A stretch of 32,000 nt of DNA from Paenibacillus silvae (GTDB taxonomy: Bacteria > Bacillota > Bacilli > Paenibacillales > Paenibacillaceae), in NCBI RefSeq assembly GCF_014639235.1, contig NZ_BMFU01000016.1, forward strand, positions 1 through 32,000. The letters run 5' to 3'. The position numbers and the translations under genes are program-made. This document shows positions 1-15,674 of the stretch, in pieces; position 1 is the first letter of the stretch; each line of letters begins with the position of its first letter. The notes under the pieces were generated by a model. That model was not told the DNA's origin and made no database searches. It saw only the letters and a list, made by a program, of their open reading frames with translations.

Positions 1-197
1 GCGAAGAAAACAAGTATTCGGTATTAGCTACCGTTTCCGGTAGTTGTCCCAAGCTTGAGGGCAGGTTGCCTACGTGTTACTCACCCGTCCGCCGCTAAGT
101 ATCAAGGAAGCAAGCTTCCTATCCACTCCGCTCGACTTGCATGTATTAGGCATGCCGCCAGCGTTCGTCCTGAGCCAGGATCAAACTCTCCAATAAA
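1..197 (-). rRNA. rrs: 16S ribosomal RNA, 5' end only (gene continues off the left edge)
   Basis: Reverse complement of 1-197 reads TTTATTGGAGAGTTTGATCCTGGCTCAGGACGAACGCTGGCGGCATGCCTAATACATGCAAGTCGAGCGGAGTGGATAGGAAGCTTGCTTCC...GGGTGAGTAACACGTAGGCAACCTGCCCTCAAGCTTGGGACAACTACCGGAAACGGTAGCTAATACCGAATAC. This is the universal 5' end of bacterial 16S rRNA, with V1/V2 regions of Paenibacillus type. Confidence 0.97.
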
Positions 198-2912: not shown

Positions 2913-3677
2913 ATGAATCGTTTATCAGGGAAAGTGGCTATTATTACTGGAGCAGGTAGTGGTATGGGTGCCGAGCAAGCTCGTTTATTTGCCAAAGAAG
3001 GTGCAAAAGTAATCGGTGGCGATATGAATACGGAAGGACTTCAAAACGTTATTGCTGAAATTAAAGCTGCTGGTGGTGAGGCGATCGGTGTCAAACTGAA
3101 TATTTCATCCCCCGAAGATTGGCAGTCCACAGTCAAAACAGCAGTCGAAACGTACGGTAAAGTGAATGTATTAGTAAATACCGCAGGGGTTGCCGGACCA
3201 TTTATAGCAAAAGCAGCCGAACATGATCCCGATGAATGGGATAAACTTCTGGCGATTAACCTCAAGGGCGCATTCCTGGGCAGTAAGTATTCTATTCCTG
3301 AGATGCTCAAAGCTGGTGGGGGTTCTATCGTAACGATCTCTTCAATCGCAGCTGCACTTGGGGGACAAGGTGGCACTGGATACGCCGCTGCCAAAGCTGG
3401 TCTGAGTGGTTTAACCAGAAATATTGCTGTAGATTACGGTAAAGATAATGTAAGGGCGAATGTTATTTTACCAGGCCAAATCAAGACGCCAATGTCTGCT
3501 GTACTTGAAACGGAAGAAGCTAAGGAAAGCAAACAGTACTACCTTAATAAAACTCCGCTGGGTCATTTCGGTGATCCAAGTGATGTCGCATATGCTGCTT
3601 TGTTTCTCGCCTCAGATGAATCCAAATTCATCACAGGTATTGAACTTCCTGTCGATGGCGGCGTAATGGCCAACTAA
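2913..3677 (+). CDS. short-chain dehydrogenase/reductase (SDR) family oxidoreductase
   Basis: 254 aa. It has the TGAGSGMG cofactor-binding motif, NTAG, and catalytic Ser...YAAAKAG (YxxxK). A GGAGGA Shine-Dalgarno sits 7 nt upstream of the ATG. Confidence 0.9.
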   Translation: MNRLSGKVAIITGAGSGMGAEQARLFAKEGAKVIGGDMNTEGLQNVIAEIKAAGGEAIGVKLNISSPEDWQSTVKTAVETYGKVNVLVNTAGVAGPFIAKAAEHDPDEWDKLLAINLKGAFLGSKYSIPEMLKAGGGSIVTISSIAAALGGQGGTGYAAAKAGLSGLTRNIAVDYGKDNVRANVILPGQIKTPMSAVLETEEAKESKQYYLNKTPLGHFGDPSDVAYAALFLASDESKFITGIELPVDGGVMAN

Positions 3678-3687
3678 CATCAAATCA

Positions 3688-3739
3688 AAAAGAGGATATC
3701 CCATTTCAACATATGTTGGAATGGAATCTCCTCTTTTTT
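3688..3739 (+). terminator. rho-independent terminator after the SDR gene
   Basis: AAAAAGAGGATATCCCATTTCAAC...GTTGGAATGGAATCTCCTCTTTTTTC: imperfect long hairpin followed by a T-run. Confidence 0.6.
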
Positions 3740-3805
3740 CGTAGTAAGCAACTGTATGTTGGTAGCATGCACCTTATTAATGACACATATCGTCAGTACC
3801 CTATA

Positions 3806-4459
3806 CTAGAGACTTAGGGATTCTCTTGTCAGAACATCAAACGTTTTTTTGGCTAGCTCAAAGTTTGAGTTTAATAAAGCATCCACCATGTCGCCCACGT
3901 AACTATTACGTTTTCTGGTTTTTTCAATTTCTCCCCACATAATTTGAGAATATGCGTTGGTAATAAAGGTAATGTCGTAATAAAATTTTATAAAAGCTTT
4001 ATTATCAGCAACTTCAAATACATAACCACATAGTCGATGCAACTTCACAATATATTCAAGCAGATTTTCTCGTTCTAATTGTTCGTTTGTTTCCTGATAA
4101 TACTGCTTCAGGTTGTTGCGCTTGTTGTCATCCCATTTCGACATAGAATAATCCACAGCCAAGGCAAACAAATCAATTAAGGCATCGGTGTAATCATGCA
4201 ACTCTTTCGAGGAGATTGATTTTACTCTTACTCCTTTTCTAGGAAGCTTCTCTAACACACCAGTATTGAGCAAAATGTAGAACGCTTCTCGAACAGGAAT
4301 ATTACTCACATTCAATTCTTTGGCGATATTGGATTCAATTAGTCGAGTTCCTTGAGGCAGCTCTCTAGTAAATATTTTTTTAAAAATAAAATTAGCGATC
4401 TGATCAGGCAACGAATCCTTGTTACCTTTAATCATTGAAGAAAAATTGAAATTTTCCAT
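3806..4459 (-). CDS. GntR-family transcriptional regulator (FadR/FCD-like C-terminal domain)
   Basis: 217 aa. The N-terminal winged HTH is LPQGTRLIESNIAKELNVSNIPVREAFYILLNTGVLEKLPRKGVRV, followed by an all-helical C-terminal domain. The gene is very AT-rich. The Shine-Dalgarno is weak, so the start is uncertain. Confidence 0.82.
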   Translation of the reverse strand: MENFNFSSMIKGNKDSLPDQIANFIFKKIFTRELPQGTRLIESNIAKELNVSNIPVREAFYILLNTGVLEKLPRKGVRVKSISSKELHDYTDALIDLFALAVDYSMSKWDDNKRNNLKQYYQETNEQLERENLLEYIVKLHRLCGYVFEVADNKAFIKFYYDITFITNAYSQIMWGEIEKTRKRNSYVGDMVDALLNSNFELAKKTFDVLTRESLSL

Positions 4460-4866
4460 CGTCTATTTTGCTATCCCTTCCACATATAACAATGAATTCA
4501 AAAGCTTATTCTTTGCTTAATACTATAGGTAGAAAATTGGATCACGTCAAATTTCATCCAACACATTGGTGTGCACATGATCTATGGTCAGTCGTTTTTA
4601 TGCGTATATAAAAAACACTGCCAGCTTTATGCAAACAATGTTTCCAGATTTAACTGTAATATGAACTTCGGATTATAGGCTGGATCTGTACCTTTAAAGT
4701 AGCTTTATATTTGAACGTATGCCTCATTATTTTCAATCAACCGTCCTCCGGATCTACATCTCGGTTGCTACACGTCCTGTAGTTGTGCCTTCTGGTCGCT
4801 GGTTCGCACAGTGCTTGTAGTTGGTTCCGGAACTATAGGTTTGGTCGGAAGCTGAATCAGATGCAA

Positions 4867-4916
4867 TAAAAAACTCTCTTTTATCTGCAAAACAACGCAG
4901 ATAAAGAGAGTTTTTT
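4867..4916 (-). terminator. bidirectional hairpin terminator, probably the original guaA terminator
   Basis: AAAAAACTCTCTTTTATCTGC-AAAACAAC-GCAGATAAAGAGAGTTTTTT has an A-run on one side and a T-run on the other. It lies 45 nt downstream (minus-strand sense) of the stop codon of the displaced guaA fragment. Confidence 0.65.
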
Positions 4917-4961
4917 ACTATCTAACTTTAAATTGATTAATGACAATAAAACTTTAACTCC

Positions 4962-5151
4962 CTACTCCCACTCGATCGTTGCAGGTGGTATGGAGGTTAC
5001 GTCATAGACAATACGGTTTACGTTGTCTACTTCGTTAACGATACGTACAGAGATTTTCTCCAATACGTCCCAAGGGATACGTGCCCAGTCGGCAGTCATA
5101 CCATCGATGGAAGTCACGGCGCGAATACCTACAGTGTAGGAGTAGGTGCGT
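4962..5151 (-). pseudogene. guaA: displaced 3'-terminal fragment of guaA (last 62 codons plus stop); distal att-type direct repeat of the islet
   Basis: Aligns without gaps to 9822-10011 at a constant offset of 4860 nt. It translates to [62 protein letters not shown], one residue different from the intact guaA C-terminus. There is no upstream coding continuation. Confidence 0.88.
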
Positions 5152-5240
5152 ATTATAGAGTTAATTACTATTCATTTTCCACGTTGTTCGGTATTTCAAT
5201 TGTAGCGGGTGAAATGACCAATTTCAATAGCTATTTAGAT

Positions 5241-5264
5241 GAAAATCCTCGTCATATGACGAGG
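5241..5264 (-). terminator. candidate terminator of the thsB'-thsA-thsB operon
   Basis: Perfect palindrome CCTCGTC-ATAT-GACGAGG (5247-5264), followed on the minus strand by ATTTTC, 47 nt after the thsB stop. Confidence 0.45.
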
Positions 5265-5310
5265 CAGATGCGGCTGTATACTTACAAAATGTTCTTCATG
5301 TCAAAGAGGT

Positions 5311-5943
5311 TCACCAGAACGAAAATAAATCTTTTTTTACAGTCTTGGTGATGTTAAATTCATTTATTCGCTTACTTTTCTCATAAGCATTTTCAATATA
5401 TTTTTCGGGTTCGGACAAAAAATCCTTTTCGTTGATTAAAGCTATATACGATCCTTCTAAACTATTTACAGTCTCACATTGTGGACATGTAAATTCCGGG
5501 TCTTTGCGGTTAAATCTATTGTTGTTGATTATTTCGTACATCAAATCTTTATCTAGGTACCTATACCGGCAACCATCCGATGTAGTTATATATTTTTCAA
5601 TCCAATTAGTACTTCCATTGACCTCCTGAATTACACCTACAATTCCATTACTTCCCGAGGTACGGTCTTCTCTAGTAGTATTCTTGAGAGAATATTCAAG
5701 TTCCCAATCAATCCATTTACTCAGCTTTATATTCGGGGATATAACAACAATAGTAACAGAAGTATCAAAAATCATTTTTTTTAAATGATTTTTGATTGTA
5801 TCCGTCTTTCTATCTGTCAAGTCAGGCGAAGCACTGGTTTCCCCTTGATAAAAACGAGCATCATCACCAAGTGCTTTGATAATTCGATCTCTCGTTCCCT
5901 TCGCTTCACTGTATTTGTACGAAACAAATGTCTTTCGTGCCAT
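5311..5943 (-). CDS. thsB: Thoeris ThsB-type TIR-like protein (DUF1863/MTH538 TIR-like fold)
   Basis: 210 aa. MARKTFVSYKYSEAKGTRDRIIKAL...SVTIVVISPNIKLSKWIDWELEYSL matches the hallmark layout of ThsB (compare B. cereus ThsB MAKRVFFSFHY...RWVRYEIMKS), including the conserved Glu after the W-x-x-W/Y element. A GGGGGTG Shine-Dalgarno lies 7 nt upstream. The gene starts 18 nt downstream of thsA. Confidence 0.8.
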   Translation of the reverse strand: MARKTFVSYKYSEAKGTRDRIIKALGDDARFYQGETSASPDLTDRKTDTIKNHLKKMIFDTSVTIVVISPNIKLSKWIDWELEYSLKNTTREDRTSGSNGIVGVIQEVNGSTNWIEKYITTSDGCRYRYLDKDLMYEIINNNRFNRKDPEFTCPQCETVNSLEGSYIALINEKDFLSEPEKYIENAYEKSKRINEFNITKTVKKDLFSFW

Positions 5944-5961
5944 GTATCACACCCCCTGCTA

Positions 5962-7416
5962 TTACTTTTTTCTTTTTTCAAGCATATTCACAATTTCAAT
6001 TACAGTGTTAATCAATGCTTCGTCAGTCTGATTCACATCGCCCAGCAATTGATATTTATCTTTCAGCTCAGCATCTGGAACATACCGGTCAAAATCATTA
6101 AAAACAGTCTCCCATATTTTTTTAGCAGTAAAGTCCGTCGCACCAATGGGAATAGGTATTACGCCGTGATTCACGCTTATTTCAAACTCTTCAATCATGC
6201 CATTTGCTTCTATTACAGCACCTGTTGAACCATCGATTTTATTGCCAAACATGAAGACGGAAATCCCAACGTTTTGAATCATGTTATTTCTGTGTTTAGT
6301 CCATAATTCCTTTATAGGGATTTGACCAGTAGTATTTTGAGGAAAAGGTCTCGAAATCAGACGTTCTTCTACCCGCTGACTTCTCGTTTTATAGATTTCC
6401 TCCAGCGCACCCGAGATTACACAACTGCCGACTCCAAGACCAAAACCAGTTACAATATTGTTCCCGTTTTTGATTACCGCTTTACTGAGGTTGCTCGCGA
6501 ACTCTAAGCAGCGCTGCTCTCCCCAATTTCCATAGTCAGAGGCACTACCGGAAATAAATAAATTTCTTCTCTTATATTGCTGTTCCACTTCCTTGAGTAT
6601 GGCCGTTATATCCTCATATTGATTTACCAATAGCACTTTAATGCTATATCTTTTCAGATCATTCACTTTTAACTTCTGCTTTATCTCAGCATATAAAAAG
6701 TCCGACTCTTCCTTGAAATCACCTCGTTGCACTTGCTTCATAAAACAATAATGTGTGCGTTGATTCTGACCCAATAGGATTCTTATACGACTCAAAATAT
6801 ATTCCAAGTTGGGATCATCAAAACTAAATCCAATAAACAACATTGTTTTTGAAACGAGGTCTCCTTGAAGAGCCGTTGTAAATAACTGCCGCTTGTTGTT
6901 GTAATTTTCATAATCATCTTTAGTTAAAACGGCTTCATGAGGCAATGAAATATCCCCATGCATTTTATAAATCTTGGCATCACTATTCGGTTTTGTTACC
7001 GCTAGGTTTTCGGTCGTTATTTTCGAGTCGATTCTTTTTCCTTCAATCTTCAAGGCTTCCTCGATTAGATCATCATAGTTGGTTGTCCAATATGTATCTA
7101 TAGGCAGCCTTGCTAAAATTTTATGATTTTCGGTGATTTCGGCATCCTTTGTAAATTCGTCAATTAATGCTTGATTTATTTTCCCTCTATTTCCACCGTT
7201 CTCATTAACATGGTACTGCGCTACTGCTATAAGGTCACTTTCTTTATCAATATTTAAATTAATTTCTTCAGCGATATCTCGAAGCAGTTCCTTCCAGTTC
7301 ACAAATCCCGCAGGTTTAGACAATCCTGCGCCCGCAAATACAGCCGCATTAGACTCCTCAATAGCAGTTTTAAAAGTTTTCAGAAACTCCGCTATTTCTT
7401 TGCTCACCAGTTTCAT
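5962..7416 (-). CDS. thsA: Thoeris ThsA: N-terminal SIR2-family NADase plus C-terminal SLOG signal-sensor domain
   Basis: SIR2 motifs are AAVFAGAGLS, ENHKILARLPIDTYWTTNYDDLIE, KMHGDISLPHEAVLTKDDY and LFIGFSFDDPNLEYILSRIR. SLOG motifs are LFISGSASDY...IVTGFGLGVGSCVISGALEE...RPFPQ. By recollection it is collinear over its full length with Bacillus cereus MSX-D12 ThsA. The start is ambiguous: TTG 7431 (ORF track), ATG 7416 (matches homologue length), or GTG 7407 (best spacing to GAGGAGG). Confidence 0.9.
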   Translation of the reverse strand: MKLVSKEIAEFLKTFKTAIEESNAAVFAGAGLSKPAGFVNWKELLRDIAEEINLNIDKESDLIAVAQYHVNENGGNRGKINQALIDEFTKDAEITENHKILARLPIDTYWTTNYDDLIEEALKIEGKRIDSKITTENLAVTKPNSDAKIYKMHGDISLPHEAVLTKDDYENYNNKRQLFTTALQGDLVSKTMLFIGFSFDDPNLEYILSRIRILLGQNQRTHYCFMKQVQRGDFKEESDFLYAEIKQKLKVNDLKRYSIKVLLVNQYEDITAILKEVEQQYKRRNLFISGSASDYGNWGEQRCLEFASNLSKAVIKNGNNIVTGFGLGVGSCVISGALEEIYKTRSQRVEERLISRPFPQNTTGQIPIKELWTKHRNNMIQNVGISVFMFGNKIDGSTGAVIEANGMIEEFEISVNHGVIPIPIGATDFTAKKIWETVFNDFDRYVPDAELKDKYQLLGDVNQTDEALINTVIEIVNMLEKRKK

Positions 7417-7427
7417 CCTCCTCAAAT

Positions 7428-7940
7428 TCAAGATTCAAACCAATTGGCTAAATGAACCCCTCGTGATTCCCCTTGTTTTATAACATACCAGTTGCCATCA
7501 TATGATTGTTCAATATAGTTGTAGATTCCATAGTATTCTCGCTCGTCCCATGTTCCTTCATTTTTCACAAGCGGAAGAATTGCAATTTTATTTAGACCCT
7601 TTACACCATCGGCTAGCCCAAGCTCCCATGGTATCCAAATTGATCGAATACTCCCTGGTGTCGCCAGCAGTACAAATTTATTAGAGCGGTTGATTCTTTG
7701 TTTCAGCTTCTGGGCCGTCTCAGACGATGTTTGGCTAGGCATACTATGGTCAAGCCAGTCAACATAAGTTCTTTGGCCGAATTGCGCCAAAAAACCTACT
7801 GCCTGTTTTACTTCCTGCTCGTCATCATGACGATGGGACAAGAAAACCGTATTTGAAGTACTGAATTGGTAATTTTCATTAAGAGACTTTTGAATCGACT
7901 GAGACATATTGTTCAACTTATTGAATGTTAGGTACGACAT
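7428..7940 (-). CDS. thsB: TIR-domain protein, second and divergent Thoeris ThsB
   Basis: 170 aa. It has canonical bacterial TIR motifs: VFLSHRHDDEQEV (start of beta-A), KFVLLATPGSIRSIWIPWELGLA (conserved W-x-W-E catalytic-Glu element). A GAGGAGG Shine-Dalgarno lies 6 nt upstream. Its stop is 11 nt before the thsA ATG and overlaps the alternative TTG. Confidence 0.82.
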   Translation of the reverse strand: MSYLTFNKLNNMSQSIQKSLNENYQFSTSNTVFLSHRHDDEQEVKQAVGFLAQFGQRTYVDWLDHSMPSQTSSETAQKLKQRINRSNKFVLLATPGSIRSIWIPWELGLADGVKGLNKIAILPLVKNEGTWDEREYYGIYNYIEQSYDGNWYVIKQGESRGVHLANWFES

Positions 7941-7981
7941 AGAAATCCTCCTCTTTTCGACTGTTGGCTATACTTACTCAA

Positions 7982-8011
7982 ATGATATTGTTCATTGGAA
8001 AGTCATTACAA
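7982..8011 (-). promoter_or_regulatory. candidate sigma-A promoter of the Thoeris operon
   Basis: Minus strand: TTGTAA (8011-8006), 18 nt, TATCAT (7987-7982), about 40 nt upstream of the thsB' start. Only moderately close to consensus. Confidence 0.3.
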
Positions 8012-8165
8012 TTCTATTATCGCTAATCACCTTATCTTTGAAAAGGGCAAAAGTATTACGACATTTGATTCTCTTGGTCCATAAATAGTGCTAAAACTGA
8101 CTCCATATAGATTAAGGATTAAAATAAAAGTATGTAAAAATACATTCTTTTATGGGGTGCACTTC

Positions 8166-8717
8166 ATGCAAAGACTAAGTGTTAACGAAAGGTCAAACCA
8201 TCTGTTCAATTTACTGAGCTTTGCCGTGAGTGAACATGATATTGCCCGAATCCTTCGCGCCAACGTATCCCTCATTTTCAAAGAAGTGGTCAACCAGACG
8301 AACGAGATTGCCATCCCCTATGTCGGCAAGTTTACCTTTAAGGAGTTTACGGGAAGGAAAATTAATGCGGTACACGGCGAAACGGTGAAGCAGCGGGATT
8401 TTGTGAAGACAAAATTCGAGCTTGGTAAATATATCAAACGACTGAATGTGAATCGGGATTTTTTTAACCGCATTGAAATTGATGCTGATTCTTTGAAACC
8501 CTGCATCGTGTTCAATACCAAAGCAGTCGCAATTCGTTCCGGCCAAGAGGACTTGATCGGCTGTATAGCACCGTCTACCAGAGTCGAGTTGTTCAATGAG
8601 GAGCAACTGTCAACCTTCACTACCGATATGCAACAGCTCTCTTCATCGAATCCTAAAACCTATGACGACATTAAGCCATTCATTCAAACCATACTCACTT
8701 TCGAGGAGTGGATTTAA
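8166..8717 (+). CDS. hypothetical protein with an N-terminal HU/IHF-like DNA-binding fold
   Basis: The N-terminal ~90 aa (NHLFNLLSFAVSEHDIARILRANVSLIFKEVVNQTNEIAIPYVGKFTFKEFTGRKINAVHGETVKQRDFVKTKFELGKYIK) follow the HU/IHF pattern: helix-helix, then I-x-G-F-G-x-F...R-x-x-x-N-P-x-T-G-E-like arm, then K-F-x-x-G-K. The C-terminal ~95 aa are unrecognised. The ATG at 8166 has a GGGGTG Shine-Dalgarno 6 nt upstream; the ORF track starts at GTG 8088. Confidence 0.5.
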   Translation: MQRLSVNERSNHLFNLLSFAVSEHDIARILRANVSLIFKEVVNQTNEIAIPYVGKFTFKEFTGRKINAVHGETVKQRDFVKTKFELGKYIKRLNVNRDFFNRIEIDADSLKPCIVFNTKAVAIRSGQEDLIGCIAPSTRVELFNEEQLSTFTTDMQQLSSSNPKTYDDIKPFIQTILTFEEWI

Positions 8718-8720
8718 GCA

Positions 8721-8828
8721 ATGAAAACCAAAAACAAATCCGAACAGCAAATCAAACAGGAGCAAGCGTACCAAGCATTTATGCTGCGAGCAGCCGATTT
8801 ACTGAAGGCATATCATCAGGGAGGATAA
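8721..8828 (+). CDS. possible 35-aa micro-ORF (MKTKNKSEQQIKQEQAYQAFMLRAADLLKAYHQGG)
   Basis: The ATG lies 3 nt after the stop of the HU-like gene. The nearest GGAG is 13 nt upstream, which is a long spacing. No recognisable family. Confidence 0.22.
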   Translation: MKTKNKSEQQIKQEQAYQAFMLRAADLLKAYHQGG

Positions 8829-8834
8829 CCGGAA

Positions 8835-8924
8835 ATGACGAACGAAACAACAGTAAAAATTAAACGCCAACTGCTTACCCTGCATTACAATGTCATGAAT
8901 GCAACGCAAAGTGGGGACATTTGA
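8835..8924 (+). CDS. possible 29-aa micro-ORF (MTNETTVKIKRQLLTLHYNVMNATQSGDI)
   Basis: A GGAGGA Shine-Dalgarno lies 9 nt upstream of the ATG. No recognisable family. Its end coincides with the truncation point of the integrase remnant on the other strand. Confidence 0.3.
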   Translation: MTNETTVKIKRQLLTLHYNVMNATQSGDI

Positions 8925-9662
8925 GCGTCCCTGCGCTCCATAAACTAATGTCGGACAAACGCCCTCTGAACGCTTTGTACAAAGCGACAAGAGAGTTTAG
9001 TGGTATGGGGTTGGCTCGATTGTGTAGTAGACAAGCGGAAAAACAAGATTTTTGCATTAACCTCCCGCGTTTGATCTTCAACCCGTTCAGCGGACTATTT
9101 AGCCGTCCAATATTCAGGATGTCCTCCTGCTCAAGCCCCTTAAATATTTTGAAGTGATCTGTGTATCGAAATGCCCCTCAGGCGACTAGGCTGTAGACAT
9201 CAATTCCATTAACCCCTGTATCGAAGAGCATAATGAGAATCAGCTTGTCCCTGACATTGGAATAAGTCTCTTCTTTCAGGTCATTGATAATCCGCGACAC
9301 TTTTCGTCGTTGAATGTAACAATAACGGTCTTCTCTTCCTTGAGATTCCTAATACGGCGCTTCGGATTACTTTGCTCGTCGATAAATTCTTCGTTAACAA
9401 TGTACTGGAAAAATACCTTCAGGGTCGCAAGGTTGTTATTCAATGTTCGGTTGACTTCACGCCCTAAACGTTGCCGCTCCTGAATATACTTTTTGATGTG
9501 AAGCTGACTTACATCCTCCACTTCTACAATCCCTAATTCTTTCTCCATTAACCTTTCCCAACGTTATAAGCGGAACATCCACAAATCAACATACTTCTTC
9601 ACACGACCCAAAATCTCTTGATTGAGCCTGAAATCCTGAAGCAATTCCTTAATTTTAGTCAT
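8893..9662 (-). pseudogene. int: tyrosine recombinase/integrase, frameshifted and 3'-truncated
   Basis: Minus-strand pieces lie in three frames. They are MTKIKELLQDFRLNQEILGRVKKYVDLWMFRL*; then MEKELGIVEVEDVSQLHIKKYIQERQRLGREVNRTLNNNLATLKVFFQYIVNEEFIDEQSNPKRRIRNLKEEKTVIVTFNDE (SAM-like N-terminal core-binding domain); then SRIINDLKEETYSNVRDKLILIMLFDTG (start of the catalytic domain with the first Arg region); then stops; then ...GTLKCPHFALHS* (H-x-L-R-H-like box). The C-terminal His/Tyr region is absent. Confidence 0.75.
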
Positions 9663-9763
9663 AAAAAATACTCCCTTCTATTTGCTGAACAACGCAGATA
9701 AAAGAGAGTGATTTTTAGCACTCTATAGTTGCACGTCAACTGGAAATCATTATGTAGCTAACA

Positions 9764-9794
9764 CCGAAAATCCTTATGTATCAAGGATTTCCGG
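9764..9794 (-). terminator. hairpin downstream of intact guaA
   Basis: Minus strand: CCGGAAATCCTT-GATACAT-AAGGATTTTCGG, 28 nt after the guaA stop. Only a weak T-tract follows. Confidence 0.4.
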
Positions 9795-9821
9795 CATTTG
9801 GCTACATCATTTCAATCCAAT

Positions 9822-11360
9822 TCACTCCCACTCAATAGTTGCAGGTGGTTTGGAAGTTACGTCATAGACGATACGGTTTACGTTGTCTACTTCGTTAACG
9901 ATCCGTACGGAGATTTTCTCCAGTACATCCCAAGGGATACGTGCCCAGTCGGCCGTCATGCCATCGATGGATGTTACAGCACGAATACCTACTGTGTAGG
10001 AATACGTACGTGCGTCACCCATAACACCAACACTCTTCATGTTAGGCAGGGCTGTAAAGTATTGCCAGATTTCGCGGTCAAGACCGGCTTTGGCAATTTC
10101 TTCACGCAGGATGTAGTCGGAATCACGCACGATTTTCAGCTTCTCTTCCGTTACTTCGCCAAGCACACGGATCGCAAGACCCGGACCAGGGAAAGGCTGA
10201 CGGTGTACAATTTCGTCCGGCAAGCCGCATTCCGTACCTACTTTACGCACTTCGTCCTTGAACAGTGTGTTCAAAGGTTCGATTAGCTTGAAGTTCATGT
10301 CTTCTGGCAGACCGCCCACGTTGTGGTGGGATTTGATCGTCTGTGCTGTAGCTGTACCACTCTCTACGATGTCTGTATACAGCGTACCTTGCGCCAGGAA
10401 TTCAAAATCATCGAACTGCTTGGACTCTTCATCAAATACGTAAATAAACTCGTTACCGATAATTTTACGTTTTTGCTCTGGATCATCCACGCCAGCTAGT
10501 TTGGACATGAAGCGTTCTTTGGCATCGATTTTGACAACCTTCATATCGAATTTGCCAACAAATGTCTCCATAACACTCTCTGCTTCGCCTTTACGCAGCA
10601 GACCATGGTCGATGAACATACATGTCAGCTGATCCCCGATTGCTTTATGCAGCAATGCCGCAACAACGGAGGAATCCACCCCGCCGCTGAGAGCACACAG
10701 CACTTTGCCGTCGCCCACTTTTTCACGAATATCTCTAATCGTATCATCAATGAATGTTTCCATCGTCCAGTTGCCTTCGCAACCGCAGATTTCAAACAGG
10801 AAGTTACGAATCATATCGTTACCGCGAACAGAGTGACGTACTTCCGGGTGGAACTGAACTGCATACAATTTGCGCTCGTCATTGCTCATTGCAGCGATTG
10901 GCGCACTTTCCGTGCCTGCATCCAGTTTGAAGCCCGGAGGCAATGTAACAACGTGGTCACCATGACTCATCCATACGGTATGTTCGCCTTCAATGCCTTT
11001 AGCCAGTACAGCACCTTCAGCAAACGCCAGATCAGCTTTACCATATTCACGCTTCTCGGAGCGCTCTACTTTACCGTCAAGCTGTTGAGCCATCAGCTGC
11101 ATTCCATAACAAATGCCGAAGATTGGCAAGCCCAGGTCATAAACACCCGGATCAACGTGTGGTGCATTTTCAGCATATACGCTGGATGGGCCGCCGGAGA
11201 ATACAATCCCTTTTGGTGCAAGCTCCGCAATTTTCTCCGCTGGTGTGTTATACGGCAAAAGCTCGCTGTATACGCCAAGATCCCGGATTCTTCTGGCGAT
11301 TAACTGGTTGTATTGGCCTCCAAAGTCAAGGACAACCACAATTTCATTCTGCTTATTCAT
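9822..11360 (-). CDS. guaA: GMP synthase (glutamine-hydrolysing)
   Basis: 512 aa. N-terminal class-I glutamine amidotransferase ([33 protein letters not shown] nucleophile Cys), ATP-pyrophosphatase P-loop SGGVDSS, and C-terminal dimerisation domain ending PPATIEWE. Confidence 0.97.
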
Positions 11361-11389
11361 TACCGTGCCTCCCTCAATTAATGAAACTA

Positions 11390-11419
11390 ATTATACGCAA
11401 CGACAAAACCTACCGTCAA
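11390..11419 (-). promoter_or_regulatory. sigma-A promoter of guaA
   Basis: Minus strand: TTGACG (11419-11414), 18 nt, TATAAT (11395-11390), about 30 nt upstream of the GGAGG Shine-Dalgarno and ATG. Confidence 0.55.
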
Positions 11420-11856
11420 GGAAAGACGAAACTCCATTTTTCGGGCAAGGAACGAGCAGATGTGACATAGGACGACAACCCTTGATAATCCCCGAGCCCC
11501 GTGTATAAGCTGCAAATATGTTCAATGGACTATGCACATTTGCTCCGACTCTCATGTCCTATGATACCCTCTCACTTTGGTCCCTGACTTTCATCTCGAT
11601 CTCGATATCGATATTCCCTTTGCACATCCGTCTCGATATCCATTTTACACATCCGTCCTTGCATCCCTCTTATAATCCGATAAAAGCACCGATCTCATCC
11701 GTTGGATGCGCAAAATCAAAGTGATACGTACCACCTCCAGGGTGGATGTGAAAACAAATCATGCGAAGGACTTTCGCAAAGTAACCAGGCAAGCTGCTTT
11801 TACCTCCAAGGCAGTTGTGCAAATCGCCGCTCACTTCCCTTGTCATGAAGCAACGC

Positions 11857-12256: not shown

Positions 12257-12412
12257 CGTAATAAGGCCCAAACTCTTGAACCTTTCCTGCACAAGCTCTA
12301 CCCACTCGTTAAAATTCAACATATGTTCCAACTTTCTGTGCCACCCTCCACCTGCAGGCTGTAAAAGTATGAGGCAGGCCCCTTCTCTTTCAGACATGTT
12401 AGAACGGTGTAG

Positions 12413-12526
<114 letters not shown>

Positions 12527-12667
12527 GCAGCCTGTCTCGGTGAGATGTTGTAAAAGCCGCGGAGGCTGGAGACATTGGAAAGATTCAACTAACAAGCGCA
12601 TTCCTTGTTTGTCGTTGATCGTATTATGGCGGGAGGTTGAGACTATACGGTATTTCATGCTTATATG

Positions 12668-12707: not shown

Positions 12708-12770
12708 GTTGCTCTGCCAGCGCTGTTTTGCACGCTGGCAACAGGTTATTATGAGACGCTGGCGCAGGGA

Positions 12771-15674
12771 TTAGCGCTGGCGTCCGGGGATGCGCCGGGT
12801 CAGGCGAAGCGCCCGGCGCAGGAAGTCGAGACTGTCCGCGCGCAGCGGACGGTCAGGGCCATACAGCAGCCGCTCCCAGTCGGCTGCAAAGCGCGCGATG
12901 TCCGCGCCGTCCGTGCCCGCGGCCACGGCGGGTGACGCTGCGTATTCCCGCAGCGTCATGCCCGGCGGCCGCGGGCCGTACCGGCGCGCAAGCGCGTGCC
13001 AGACCGGAGCGGCAGCCTGCAGCAGCCGCTCGCGGTCCGGGAAGCTGCTGCGCGGCCATGCCAGCAGCAGCCTGAGCCGCAGCGCAGGGCGAAGCCGCCT
13101 CGCGCTGGCCCATGCAGCGGCGCACAGCATCGCCGCTGCGGCTATTGCCGCGGCAGGCCATGGCGCCGCGGCCAATCCCCGTGCGCGCGCAGCCAGCCAC
13201 GCGCCCGCACGGTCCATTCCGCTGCCTGCACCCGGCAGCGGGGACCCATCGCCGGGCTGCAGCCCGGCGGAAGCCGTAGCGCTGGCATCACCCGCCTGCG
13301 CTGCATCAAACCCCGGCGTAGCCTCAAAAGGCATCCAGCCCACGCCGGGAAAATACACCTCCACCCAGGAATGGGCATCAGCCTGGGTGACAATGACACG
13401 CCCGGGGACCTGCGGGTCCGCTTGTCCGGGGGCGTAACCCTTCACCCAGCGTGCCGGAATGCCTTCAGCACGCAGCAGCACAACCATGGCGGTAGAGAAA
13501 TGGTTACAATATCCCGCCCGGGTTACAAACAGAAAATCATCAACAAAATCCCTGCCTCGCGGCGGCATCCGGGTATCCAGCGAGTAACGGGCATGCGCTT
13601 GCAAATAGCTGCGTACAGCTTGTACAGCGTCGTACCGCGTTTCACTCGTACCCATAATCTCGGCAGCCAGGTCCTTAACACGCTGCGGAAGCGTATCCGG
13701 CAGCTGCAAATCCTTTCTGCGGATGGAAGCCGGATCGACTAAATTCCCTTTGTTCCCGCCACTACCCTCCTGCACGCCTAGGCCGCCATCCTTCTTATCC
13801 GAGCCGGTGCTGCCTGTATCAGCGAGTACAATATCCATCTTCGCGTTCAAACCTGCATGCTGCTGTTCTTCCCCGCCATCGCCCCATTTCTCTGAACCCG
13901 CACGTTTTGTCTCATCATTCCTACTTTGCTTCTTATCCAAGCCCATGCTTCTTGTCGCAGCGAGCGTAATATCCACATTCTCGTTCAAACCAGCATACTG
14001 ACGTTCTACCCAACTCTCGCTCCACTTCTCTGTACCAGCACGTTTGGCCCCATCATAATCAATACTTTCCTCCTGAACCATACTCGCAGTTTGCTGTTCT
14101 TTAGCACCATTACCACTTAGGCCAACGTACTTTTCATCCCCACTAACGTAAATCCCGTCCACGCTAGTGCTCTTTGTCCTGTCTGAACCCGCATTTTTCA
14201 TTCTGTCCATACCCGCGCTCTGCCGAAGCACGTCTGGAGTTACATCCGGCACCATCACATCGACGGTGTAGTGCTGTACACGGGTCTGCCGATCCCCACC
14301 ACCCGCAAGCCACAAGGTACCTGTATCTTCACTCGACAGCAGTCGTTTCTCATTCTTGCCGTTAAGCGCGTTGCCATCTTGAAAAGACAAGCTTACCGGC
14401 AGACCTCCCGCAAACAGCGGATTAGGTGCTCGCCATTCCCTCTCCATCGTGATGATCTGACGAACCCTCTTCCAGTGCGGGTGCTCCTCCCATCCATCCG
14501 ATCGCAGCATTCCCGAGGAGTCTGCATAATGGAATCGCTGCTCCACATCACTCCATGCACTTCCGTTGTAATACGAGCGGGTTTCCCCGCGCCAATACGT
14601 AGATACAGGGGTGCTTGCGGTAAACACCGGCTCATTCCCCTGTACCAGCGGAGCCCCCATTGGTGCATCGACCGTGCTGTAGCCCGTCATACTCAAGGAG
14701 GCAGGGATACTTCCCGAAGGTGTATATCCTGCCCATTTAGCCAAACGTTCGACCGTGTCCATGACAGAAATATGCCTCGCAGGCGACACAACATTCATAC
14801 GTGCCGGAAGCATGGATATGAGGACCAGACAGGCAGTAGCTCCTAATGACACAGCAATCCAAGCCATACGTACCCTTCTTCGCATTGGACGGGAATTGTT
14901 CTTTTCACTTCTCGCCATCTTCCGATGTGTTCGATGAACAGCCCCATGTATATCCTGCGATTCCCTTACTGCTGCATCTCGCACCGCCGCTTCATGACCT
15001 GTCCCTTCAGAAAGCCGCAGCAGATACAGCAGACCTTGAATGGACAAGAGCCAGCATACAGAGCGCAACACCGAGCCATATGCCTCATATCCGACCAGAC
15101 TTTCCAGTAGAATCAGATAAACTAATGTGCCTGTACCAAACAACGAAATGCTGCGGCGCAGCAATACAAGGTACTGCACCGAAGCAAGCAGCATACTCCA
15201 GCCGCACAGCATAAACAAACCTCTCGTCTCACGGCTCATGACACGAAAACGGCCTTTGTCGATCCATTCGCCAAGATCGGCATTAAGCATGCCAGGGTAG
15301 GCTGTGCCCCACTCGAACGGATGACTGGCTCCATACATCAGACACAACGCAGCATAGATGAGCGGAAGGCGAATAAGAATACTGGCAACCCAGCCGGTTC
15401 TGTACAGGCCAACCGACAGCAAAACTGCCGAATAACCCGCCATTACCGCAGCGAATCGCTCACTGCCAATCTGACCGGAAGAAGTAACAGGATAGATCCA
15501 TTCCATGCATAAAAGGAACAGCCCCGCTGTAATCAGCCACAGATACAGAGCAGGTGCAGTTCCCTGGGCGGAGGAAGATAATGGCGATATCCCCTCCATA
15601 CGGTGGCCCTTGATCGTCTGCCCGGTAAAAGATACTGAGTCAGCTTCGTTCCTCTTGTTACGCTCCCACATCAA
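12771..15674 (-). CDS. transglutaminase-like membrane protein (YebA/TgpA-like, with DUF4129-like Ala/Arg-rich C-terminus)
   Basis: 967 aa. It has an N-terminal multi-TM region and a transglutaminase core: GYCNHFSTAMVVLLRAEGIPARWVKGY...DAHSWVEVYFPGVGWMPFEATPG (Cys-His-Asp triad context). It overlaps the DUF58 gene by 17 nt. Its position after MoxR and DUF58 and before guaA matches B. subtilis yebA. Confidence 0.9.
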   Translation of the reverse strand: MMWERNKRNEADSVSFTGQTIKGHRMEGISPLSSSAQGTAPALYLWLITAGLFLLCMEWIYPVTSSGQIGSERFAAVMAGYSAVLLSVGLYRTGWVASILIRLPLIYAALCLMYGASHPFEWGTAYPGMLNADLGEWIDKGRFRVMSRETRGLFMLCGWSMLLASVQYLVLLRRSISLFGTGTLVYLILLESLVGYEAYGSVLRSVCWLLSIQGLLYLLRLSEGTGHEAAVRDAAVRESQDIHGAVHRTHRKMARSEKNNSRPMRRRVRMAWIAVSLGATACLVLISMLPARMNVVSPARHISVMDTVERLAKWAGYTPSGSIPASLSMTGYSTVDAPMGAPLVQGNEPVFTASTPVSTYWRGETRSYYNGSAWSDVEQRFHYADSSGMLRSDGWEEHPHWKRVRQIITMEREWRAPNPLFAGGLPVSLSFQDGNALNGKNEKRLLSSEDTGTLWLAGGGDRQTRVQHYTVDVMVPDVTPDVLRQSAGMDRMKNAGSDRTKSTSVDGIYVSGDEKYVGLSGNGAKEQQTASMVQEESIDYDGAKRAGTEKWSESWVERQYAGLNENVDITLAATRSMGLDKKQSRNDETKRAGSEKWGDGGEEQQHAGLNAKMDIVLADTGSTGSDKKDGGLGVQEGSGGNKGNLVDPASIRRKDLQLPDTLPQRVKDLAAEIMGTSETRYDAVQAVRSYLQAHARYSLDTRMPPRGRDFVDDFLFVTRAGYCNHFSTAMVVLLRAEGIPARWVKGYAPGQADPQVPGRVIVTQADAHSWVEVYFPGVGWMPFEATPGFDAAQAGDASATASAGLQPGDGSPLPGAGSGMDRAGAWLAARARGLAAAPWPAAAIAAAAMLCAAAWASARRLRPALRLRLLLAWPRSSFPDRERLLQAAAPVWHALARRYGPRPPGMTLREYAASPAVAAGTDGADIARFAADWERLLYGPDRPLRADSLDFLRRALRLTRRIPGRQR

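Follow-up and report, generated by a model that had tools for sequence, protein, structure and literature searches.

Integration at the 3′ end of guaA, which encodes GMP synthase, is already well documented, and a 32,000-nucleotide (nt) stretch of Paenibacillus silvae DNA (contig NZ_BMFU01000016.1, positions 1–32,000 of the forward strand; hereafter the window) holds, behind an intact guaA, a 4.86-kb island enclosed by two copies of the end of that gene. We regard this island as a decayed integrative element that was inserted by a tyrosine integrase specific for the guaA 3′ end, a reading to which we assign a probability of roughly 85%. What is unusual here is the length over which the element imitates its target, and that most of this imitation is not the part used.

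Among staphylococcal elements, SaPIbov1 integrates after guaA, and direct repeats at the staphylococcal guaA site are shorter than 20 nt, against 189 nt here; our literature search returned neither a paper pairing SaPIbov1 with ‘GMP synthase’ nor the SaPIbov1 core sequence. Staphylococcal pathogenicity islands (SaPIs), such as SpPI-181, lie directly 3′ of guaA with an adjacent tyrosine integrase (PMC8297860). Tn5801-like islands occupy the extreme 3′ end of guaA by means of a tyrosine recombinase, preserving the gene and leaving 11-bp repeats (PMC4844618), and streptococcal integrative conjugative elements (ICEs) along with integrative mobilizable elements (IMEs) likewise use a tyrosine recombinase at the guaA 3′ end and preserve the gene, with ICE repeats of 12–54 bp (PMC4701971). 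The Tn5801 and streptococcal elements bring along resistance genes as well as modules for conjugation or mobilisation, whereas the island described here bears defence cargo and has no conjugation module left, and its repeat extends over 189 nt plus a terminator copy.

The epsilon15/CMGI-3 integrase cluster of Proteobacteria also has the guaA 3′ end as its site. For GIsul2, the crossover core at guaA is GAGTGGGA (PMC9376610). The hosts of GIsul2 and of the epsilon15 cluster belong to another phylum, and the crossover has been shown for GIsul2, whereas here its putative position comes from sequence comparison. The epsilon15/CMGI-3 cluster falls within the IntSXT subgroup, whereas the integrase at the Paenibacillus site is a protein of ~318 amino acids (aa) with Phage_int_SAM_1 and Phage_integrase domains and the source label XerD, a comparison that concerns domains only. 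A different gene offers a further precedent: phage 21 and e14 carry a substitute icd 3′ end of ~165 nt that differs mainly at synonymous sites, and their lysogens keep a working gene. The integration site of both is icd of Escherichia coli (PMC12803456). In those elements the imported segment becomes translated, whereas in the present island guaA makes no use of at least the initial ~100 nt of the element segment.

The guaA terminus is duplicated around the island

The working 3′ end of guaA (9822–10011, on the integrase side; the proximal copy) recurs at 4962–5151 (the distal copy) as a gap-free direct repeat, both on the minus strand, with an offset of 4860 nt; gene positions 1–189 are counted along the repeat in the direction of guaA. 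At 189/190 nt this is the biggest repeat within 4000–11500, where the runner-up family measures 38 nt, and it places a target-derived copy at either end of the island. A sequence-only reading of this DNA had proposed a same-orientation second copy of the last 62 codons and the stop codon 4860 nt away, with about 20 substitutions, a single Lys-to-Ile change and different stop codons, and alignment bears this out: the 21 sites in 189 nt at which the copies differ comprise 18 synonymous changes, a single non-synonymous one (AAA Lys to ATA Ile in the distal copy, codon 4989–4991) and two within the stop codon (TAG distal, TGA proximal). Counted formally by the Nei–Gojobori method, synonymous and non-synonymous divergence between the copies are dS = 0.58 and dN = 0.007, and a synonymous share of at least 18 of 19 changes has a probability of 1e-10 under random placement. 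The longest exact runs shared by the copies, 32 nt (5011–5042) and 26 nt (5068–5093), lie where that reading had put them.

Homology between the two ends of the island extends beyond the stop codon, as a terminator copy at 9665–9702 matches 4868–4905 at 84% with an offset of 4797. The terminator that the sequence-only reading had rated as good beside the distal copy proved to be a strong hairpin (Table 1), and the proximal hairpin, preceded by a spacer of 100 nt, has a folding energy of −28.3 kcal/mol (z = −3.4) and holds in its 3′ arm the GGGAG ribosome-binding site of the integrase gene, int. The base composition of the island also departs from that of its target, with a guanine-plus-cytosine (GC) content of 35–41% against 46–50% across guaA. 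The native spacer between the distal stop codon and its terminator (4919–4925, corresponding to 2663–2717 in locus L081, described below) is shortened relative to L081 by roughly 55–60 nt, the estimates being ~53 nt according to blastn coordinates and ~61 nt according to MAFFT alignment and the repeat offsets.

An empty site and other occupants

A search with the exact GuaA sequence of the window yielded one further contig, L081 (GCA_003248275.1), which supplies the empty site that the sequence-only reading had asked for: it encodes an identical GuaA protein and has just one guaA terminus, without any island. Its gene order runs from guaA through one spacer and one terminator to a GntR gene, a short-chain dehydrogenase (SDR) gene, a riboswitch and pbuG. 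Between L081 and the window, DNA identity is 97% over the guaA body and, by blastn, ~96% over the wider flanks, and the island has left its target intact, as the 512-aa GuaA is the same in both.

The interval behind guaA varies widely, with a guaA-to-pbuG distance of 439–7840 nt among 80 Paenibacillus guaA loci, and the site has other occupants as well. Loci L005 and L007 each have a full second guaA terminus, different cargo and integrase remnants; L088 (P. caseinilyticus, CP003422.2) holds a 9-kb element that is complete, with an intact integrase and a repeat of 189 nt containing 13 mismatches; Paenibacillus sp. 1_12 carries a related element treated below; and L008 and L070 retain partial second copies of the terminus. 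The arm beside the distal copy is common to the window, L005, L007 and L088, in all of which the guaA-like segment begins at the same codon. A blastn-short search with this 85-nt arm gave no matches, its conservation being visible in MAFFT alignments instead.

Together with the guaA-linked integrase family described next, the empty site and the other occupants uphold the claim of a site-specific insertion at the guaA 3′ end that leaves the gene intact. The sequence-only reading had also listed what would count against it, namely both terminus copies in close relatives lacking the thsA and thsB genes, substitutions without enrichment at synonymous sites, or the absence of an uninterrupted guaA–terminator junction from related genomes, and we found none of the three.

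The integrase remnant belongs to a family linked to guaA

At the proximal side, where the sequence-only reading had placed an integrase, tblastn mapping reveals a remnant that begins 160 nt past the guaA stop codon, at one island end beside the target. Codon 33 is an in-frame stop, a frameshift lies close to residue 120, the C-terminus is frameshifted, and residues 152–262, the catalytic core, have been removed by a deletion of 333 nt relative to L090, one of two loci from the sp. 1_12 element. The gene is a dead pseudogene, and a functional product would not be expected from it.

The family was defined with the integrase of L060, a 318-aa tyrosine recombinase (Pfam Phage_int_SAM_1 and Phage_integrase) that we reconstructed from a gene interrupted by an insertion sequence. 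At E ≤ 1e-20 it has 707 homologues, in Paenibacillus, Cohnella, Brevibacillus, Bacillus, Lysinibacillus, Oceanobacillus, Exiguobacterium and other genera. Each of the seven contexts examined (four genomes of Paenibacillus and one context each from Oceanobacillus, Exiguobacterium and Lysinibacillus) has an intact integrase gene ~160 nt 3′ of guaA on the same strand, and conservation across genera extends to the spacer, the terminator and the beginning of the integrase gene. The Exiguobacterium repeat comprises just ~53 nt of guaA and ~60 nt downstream. Sequenced phages yielded no close homologue, the best match falling below 32% identity, and IMG/VR contributed one related contig (L085).

This integrase family thus appears to be widespread in Bacillales, always behind guaA and with varied cargo, and it could help in finding new defence cargo. 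As far as we searched the literature, the family is undescribed, with no paper joining guaA, Paenibacillus and integrase. Cargo confirmed by PADLOC at the guaA site consists of Thoeris and a dGTPase system, the latter in a locus without an integrase (L009). Candidates behind guaA recognised by Pfam only include an OLD-type nuclease (L083), a 1214-aa nSTAND3 NTPase with a DUF3800 protein (L086), a Schlafen/AlbA_2 protein (L084) and HNH nucleases (L082, L086, L088). Locus L005 encodes a 527-aa protein with a weak NsnA match only, a serine resolvase of ~185 aa recurs in five elements, and a YonV_C protein occurs in three.

Kinship with an 18-kb element of Paenibacillus sp. 1_12

Paenibacillus sp. 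1_12 (GCA_900114475.1, FOTE01000017.1; L089/L090) contains an element with an intact integrase and both guaA repeats, 18,259 nt apart, to which the window island is related at both ends. Window positions 4963–8732, spanning the distal repeat, the arm, thsB, thsA, the region of the second thsB and a gene of unknown function, are 85% identical to the right-hand end of that element, and 9211–10100, covering the guaA terminus, spacer, terminator and integrase, are 84% identical to its left-hand end. The arms are ~92% identical, and the second thsB region in sp. 1_12 holds only short open reading frames (ORFs) of 104 and 45 aa. These stretches share 84–85% identity against just 73% for the guaA bodies of the two hosts, and the element must therefore have moved horizontally.

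The sp. 1_12 element also encodes a divergently oriented helix-turn-helix (HTH) repressor, an HTH_17 protein, a DUF3987 primase, a second recombinase, an FtsK/SpoIIIE protein and others, and the window lacks these backbone genes. Its island is a cut-down version of the 18.3-kb element type found in sp. 1_12. In sp. 1_12 the integrase, divergent HTH repressor, HTH_17 gene and DUF3987 primase follow one another in an order resembling that of SaPIs, a likeness from which the window island departs by being without the regulatory and replication module. No Pfam families for packaging, capsid remodelling or helper interference (terS, cpm, ppi) appear in the gene tables of the relatives, where many ORFs are unannotated and no dedicated search was made, and as regards conjugation or mobilisation the sp. 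1_12 element has the FtsK/SpoIIIE gene alone. Its two repeat copies are identical over positions 52–140 and differ on both sides of this stretch, a pattern that suggests gene conversion between the repeats.

Origin of the two copies and position of the crossover

In the sequence-only reading, the proximal copy would come from the element and the distal copy would be the native end that had been displaced. With L081 as the reference, this assignment holds for the stop codon, spacer and terminator and runs the other way over at least the initial ~100 nt. Between the guaA bodies of the window and L081, 41 of 1350 sites differ (3.0%); for the proximal repeat the count against L081 is 8 of 187 sites, a native-like rate (P = 0.21), and for the distal repeat it is 17 of 187 (P ~ 1e-4), 16 of these 17 being synonymous. 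At positions 3, 6, 9, 18, 30, 36, 39, 57, 84, 88 and 102 the proximal copy agrees with L081 and the distal copy does not, and the distal differences are grouped at positions 3–102, with the proximal-specific ones at 108–189, stop codon included. The sp. 1_12 element supplies the complementary matches: its distal copy has the otherwise unique alleles of the window’s distal copy at positions 3, 9, 30 and 39, and the proximal ending GAGTGGGAGTGA and the spacer behind it recur in its proximal copy, while the distal GTAG ending and its spacer match L081. Because the 5′ parts and the stop and spacer parts of the copies thus match opposite sources, each copy is a chimera, and on the proximal side the alignments identify only the TGA stop codon, spacer and terminator as derived from the element.

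The junction within these chimeras can be placed approximately. A likelihood profile gives posterior probabilities for the crossover of about 1–3% at positions ≤83, about 16% at 84–107, 12–17% at 108–140 and about 62–71% at 141–187. Of the two identical blocks that the sequence-only reading had offered as crossover core, the 26-nt block therefore fares poorly (about 1–2% for the block itself) and the 32-nt block, which occupies positions 108–140, is possible, with the last ~50 nt of the repeat favoured over both. The short Exiguobacterium repeat, with its ~53 nt of guaA, likewise pointed to the last ~50 nt. Within this part, the octamer GAGTGGGA at positions 178–185 (9826–9833 and 4966–4973) is the same in both copies of the window and of every pair with an intact integrase, with differences on either side, and it coincides with the GIsul2 core. 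We therefore place the crossover in the 3′ half of the repeat, possibly at GAGTGGGA, which we consider the leading candidate at somewhat short of even odds; a site elsewhere in the last 50 nt is somewhat less likely, and positions 103–140 would be an unlikely location. A crossover in the terminator was rejected, as the distal stop codon and spacer match L081 and the proximal ones do not. These results carry a caution for similar loci: if the element’s likeness to its target is long, the plain labels native and foreign fit neither repeat, and the integrase-side copy can be native for the most part.

Integration history and alternative explanations

Our findings suggest a history in which the attachment region of the incoming element imitated its target, with 189 nt resembling guaA, then a stop codon, spacer and terminator, and int directly behind them. 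The integrase would have recombined this imitation with the last part of guaA, producing two chimeric repeats: a proximal one running from native guaA to the crossover and continuing into the TGA, spacer, terminator and int of the element, and a distal one running from the guaA-like segment of the element to the crossover and ending in the native TAG, spacer and terminator. The gene would stay intact and keep a terminator because the element supplies both a stop codon and a terminator. Afterwards, ~13 kb of backbone would have been lost and the integrase gene wrecked by deletions and frameshifts, fixing the island in place, such that it can presumably be lost now only via homologous recombination between the repeats. 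Such a history explains both how this Paenibacillus strain gained Thoeris and why guaA continues to work.

Several observations weigh against this reading or blur its details. The integrase of the window is dead, hence any role for it in this insertion rests on its relatives, from which we infer that it catalysed the event; integration itself is read from the sequence. With L081 alone, the best crossover intervals at positions 102–187 tie and the others within this range are just slightly worse, and taking L081 and L001 as reference also gives tied optima. L081, being 3–4% removed from the window, is a proxy only for the pre-insertion sequence, and a four-way comparison with sp. 1_12 is blurred by hosts that are 73% identical and by the identity of the sp. 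1_12 copies over positions 52–140. The allele pattern in the window may similarly have been blurred by gene conversion between the repeats. As for the octamer, the identity of GAGTGGGA could reflect just the coding of Glu-Trp-Glu, and L007 has a mismatch within it.

Purely synonymous divergence would classically be read as the mark of a replacement gene end, with a crossover inside the 26-nt block or at (or close to) the repeat’s 5′ edge, a proximal copy that is the translated, element-supplied end, and a distal copy that is the displaced native one. The TGA and TAG stop codons and both spacers do fit this explanation. We nevertheless consider it very improbable, as it is the proximal and not the distal copy that matches the empty site at the eleven positions from 3 to 102, the distal alleles at 3, 9, 30 and 39 are found in the distal copy of the sp. 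1_12 element, and a crossover at or before position 83 receives so little of the posterior. Less credible still is the idea that the guaA terminus was duplicated locally and that unrelated insertions later separated the two copies: the shared orientation and gap-free alignment would suit it, but the dS of 0.58 between the copies stands against a third-position difference of 8% between the guaA genes of the window and L081, the distal copy adjoins an arm common to elements of other species, and the proximal copy adjoins an integrase remnant.

Two further alternatives accept the foreign origin of the island, and we judge both to be unlikely. Campbell-type homologous recombination by RecA, acting through 189–350 nt of guaA homology with the integrase not the catalyst, would be favoured by so long a homology with exact runs of 32 and 26 nt, and the sameness of the sp. 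1_12 copies over positions 52–140, together with the mere 4–5 differing sites in L005 and L007, suggests that exchange is frequent. It is harder to reconcile with an integrase family tied to guaA across genera, even where ~53 nt of homology lie 5′ of the stop codon as in Exiguobacterium, and with island edges that coincide with the conserved arm and the terminator–int junction. The island might instead have come in as part of a larger fragment, integrated beforehand in a related strain, with flanking homology mediating replacement of the guaA–pbuG region; the high variability of that interval among 71 Paenibacillus loci and the dead integrase are consistent with such an import. Against it, the proximal repeat and both flanks are as near to L081 as the remainder of guaA, up to the repeat edges, and an import would alter the place of integration only, not the nature of the structure.

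Returning to integrase-mediated insertion, one feature calls for an additional process. The 5′ segment of the element’s guaA imitation is unneeded for restoring the gene, yet it has diverged essentially at synonymous sites. In view of the identity of the sp. 1_12 copies over 52–140 and of the small number of differing sites (4–5) in L005 and L007, we infer that this segment has been repeatedly re-copied from host guaA by homologous exchange. More speculatively, the guaA-specific integrases of Bacillales might form a docking system for defence cargo, with a target imitation of ~350 nt whose 5′ part (about 100–177 nt, beginning at one and the same codon in five islands) is kept guaA-like by repeated exchange with the guaA of each host; we hold this idea tentatively and think it doubtful in its full form. 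If true, homologous exchange would explain the purely synonymous divergence, and the element would have an integrase-independent route into and out of the chromosome, even after the integrase has decayed.

Contents of the island and its surroundings

The thsB–thsA–thsB cargo (Table 1) has the make-up of a type I Thoeris anti-phage system, with a ThsA that combines SIR2 and SLOG (STALD) domains flanked by two genes for TIR-domain ThsB proteins. In domain content and gene adjacency, it matches type I Thoeris with nothing unusual, and loci with several ThsB genes are known for this system. A search of ORFs and Pfam families disclosed no repressor, excisionase or primase–replicase module in the window island and no conjugation or mobilisation module in the window.

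Table 1. Coordinates of guaA, its duplicated terminus and the features of the island in the window
Feature	Position	Strand	Basis or remark
guaA (GMP synthase), intact, 512 aa	9822..11360	-	ORF; Pfam GATase and GMP_synt_C
Proximal repeat (attL-like), working guaA 3′ end	9822..10011	-	native-like over at least gene positions 1–102; TGA from element
Element-supplied spacer and terminator 3′ of guaA	9665..9821	-	spacer unlike L081; kept in elements from four genera
Tyrosine integrase pseudogene	9064..9662	-	tblastn of reconstructed 318-aa L060 integrase against window
Segment across large internal deletion	8733..9063	.	unmatched in blastn against L089 and L090 (18-kb element)
Gene of unknown function, 183 aa from ATG (209 aa from GTG at 8088)	8166..8717	+	right-hand module of element
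thsB (TIR), second copy, 170 aa	7428..7940	-	Pfam TIR_2/ThsB_TIR; PADLOC ThsB 3e-50
thsA (SIR2 and SLOG/STALD), 484–489 aa	5962..7431	-	Pfam SIR2_2 2e-31, STALD 1e-73; PADLOC ThsA1 1e-207
thsB (TIR), 210 aa	5311..5943	-	Pfam ThsB_TIR; PADLOC ThsB 2e-81
Terminator-like hairpin 3′ of Thoeris genes	5247..5264	-	consensus scan
Conserved 85-nt element arm beside distal repeat	5152..5235	-	alignment of window, L005, L007 and L088
Distal repeat (attR-like), element-borne guaA-like segment and native TAG	4962..5151	-	element-type over at least gene positions 1–102
Native bidirectional guaA terminator	4867..4917	-	perfect 15-nt arms; −34.7 kcal/mol, z = −6.9; after guaA in L081 too

The gene of unknown function (8088–8717) has no family match in Pfam, PHROGs or PADLOC. 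It has eight homologues, of which those with a source name all come from Paenibacillus and one adjoins thsA in the sp. 1_12 element, and its 183-aa product is 100% identical to the P. silvae hypothetical protein GCM10008014_54330. Look-ups by exact protein, for ThsA with either of two start codons and for this P. silvae copy, returned no entry. In the conserved arm, a promoter scan detected an invariant, outward-facing TTGAAA-17-TACAAT promoter-like site (5227–5199, minus strand) directed toward the distal repeat, which is also present in the arms of L005, L007, L088 and L089. In an excised circle this site would read over the attachment site toward int, with the terminator at 9665–9724 intervening.

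Beyond the native terminator lie, in order, the GntR and SDR genes, a purine riboswitch (2502–2602) ahead of pbuG, and, at the window edge, the 5′ end of a 16S rRNA gene (1–196, minus strand). The GntR–SDR pair (2913–4459), situated between the guaA terminator and the riboswitch–pbuG unit, was found elsewhere only in L081 among the 90 loci fetched, and within this intergenic hotspot it represents a second insert, one that is lineage-specific. The 16S rRNA gene may explain why many contigs of relatives end a few kb past pbuG.

On the upstream side of guaA, a 967-aa ORF (12771–15674, minus strand) occupies the place of a transglutaminase-core protein in relatives. Its ~210-aa C-terminal tail, rich in Ala, Arg and Pro, is encoded within 12751–13500, a stretch whose GC rises to 0.75 against roughly 45% for the genome. 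The hexamer GTTTGG is repeated 19 times in tandem at 12412–12527, between the guaA upstream region and this ORF, and inside the ORF a 138-nt unit is repeated 1.9 times at 13791–14056.

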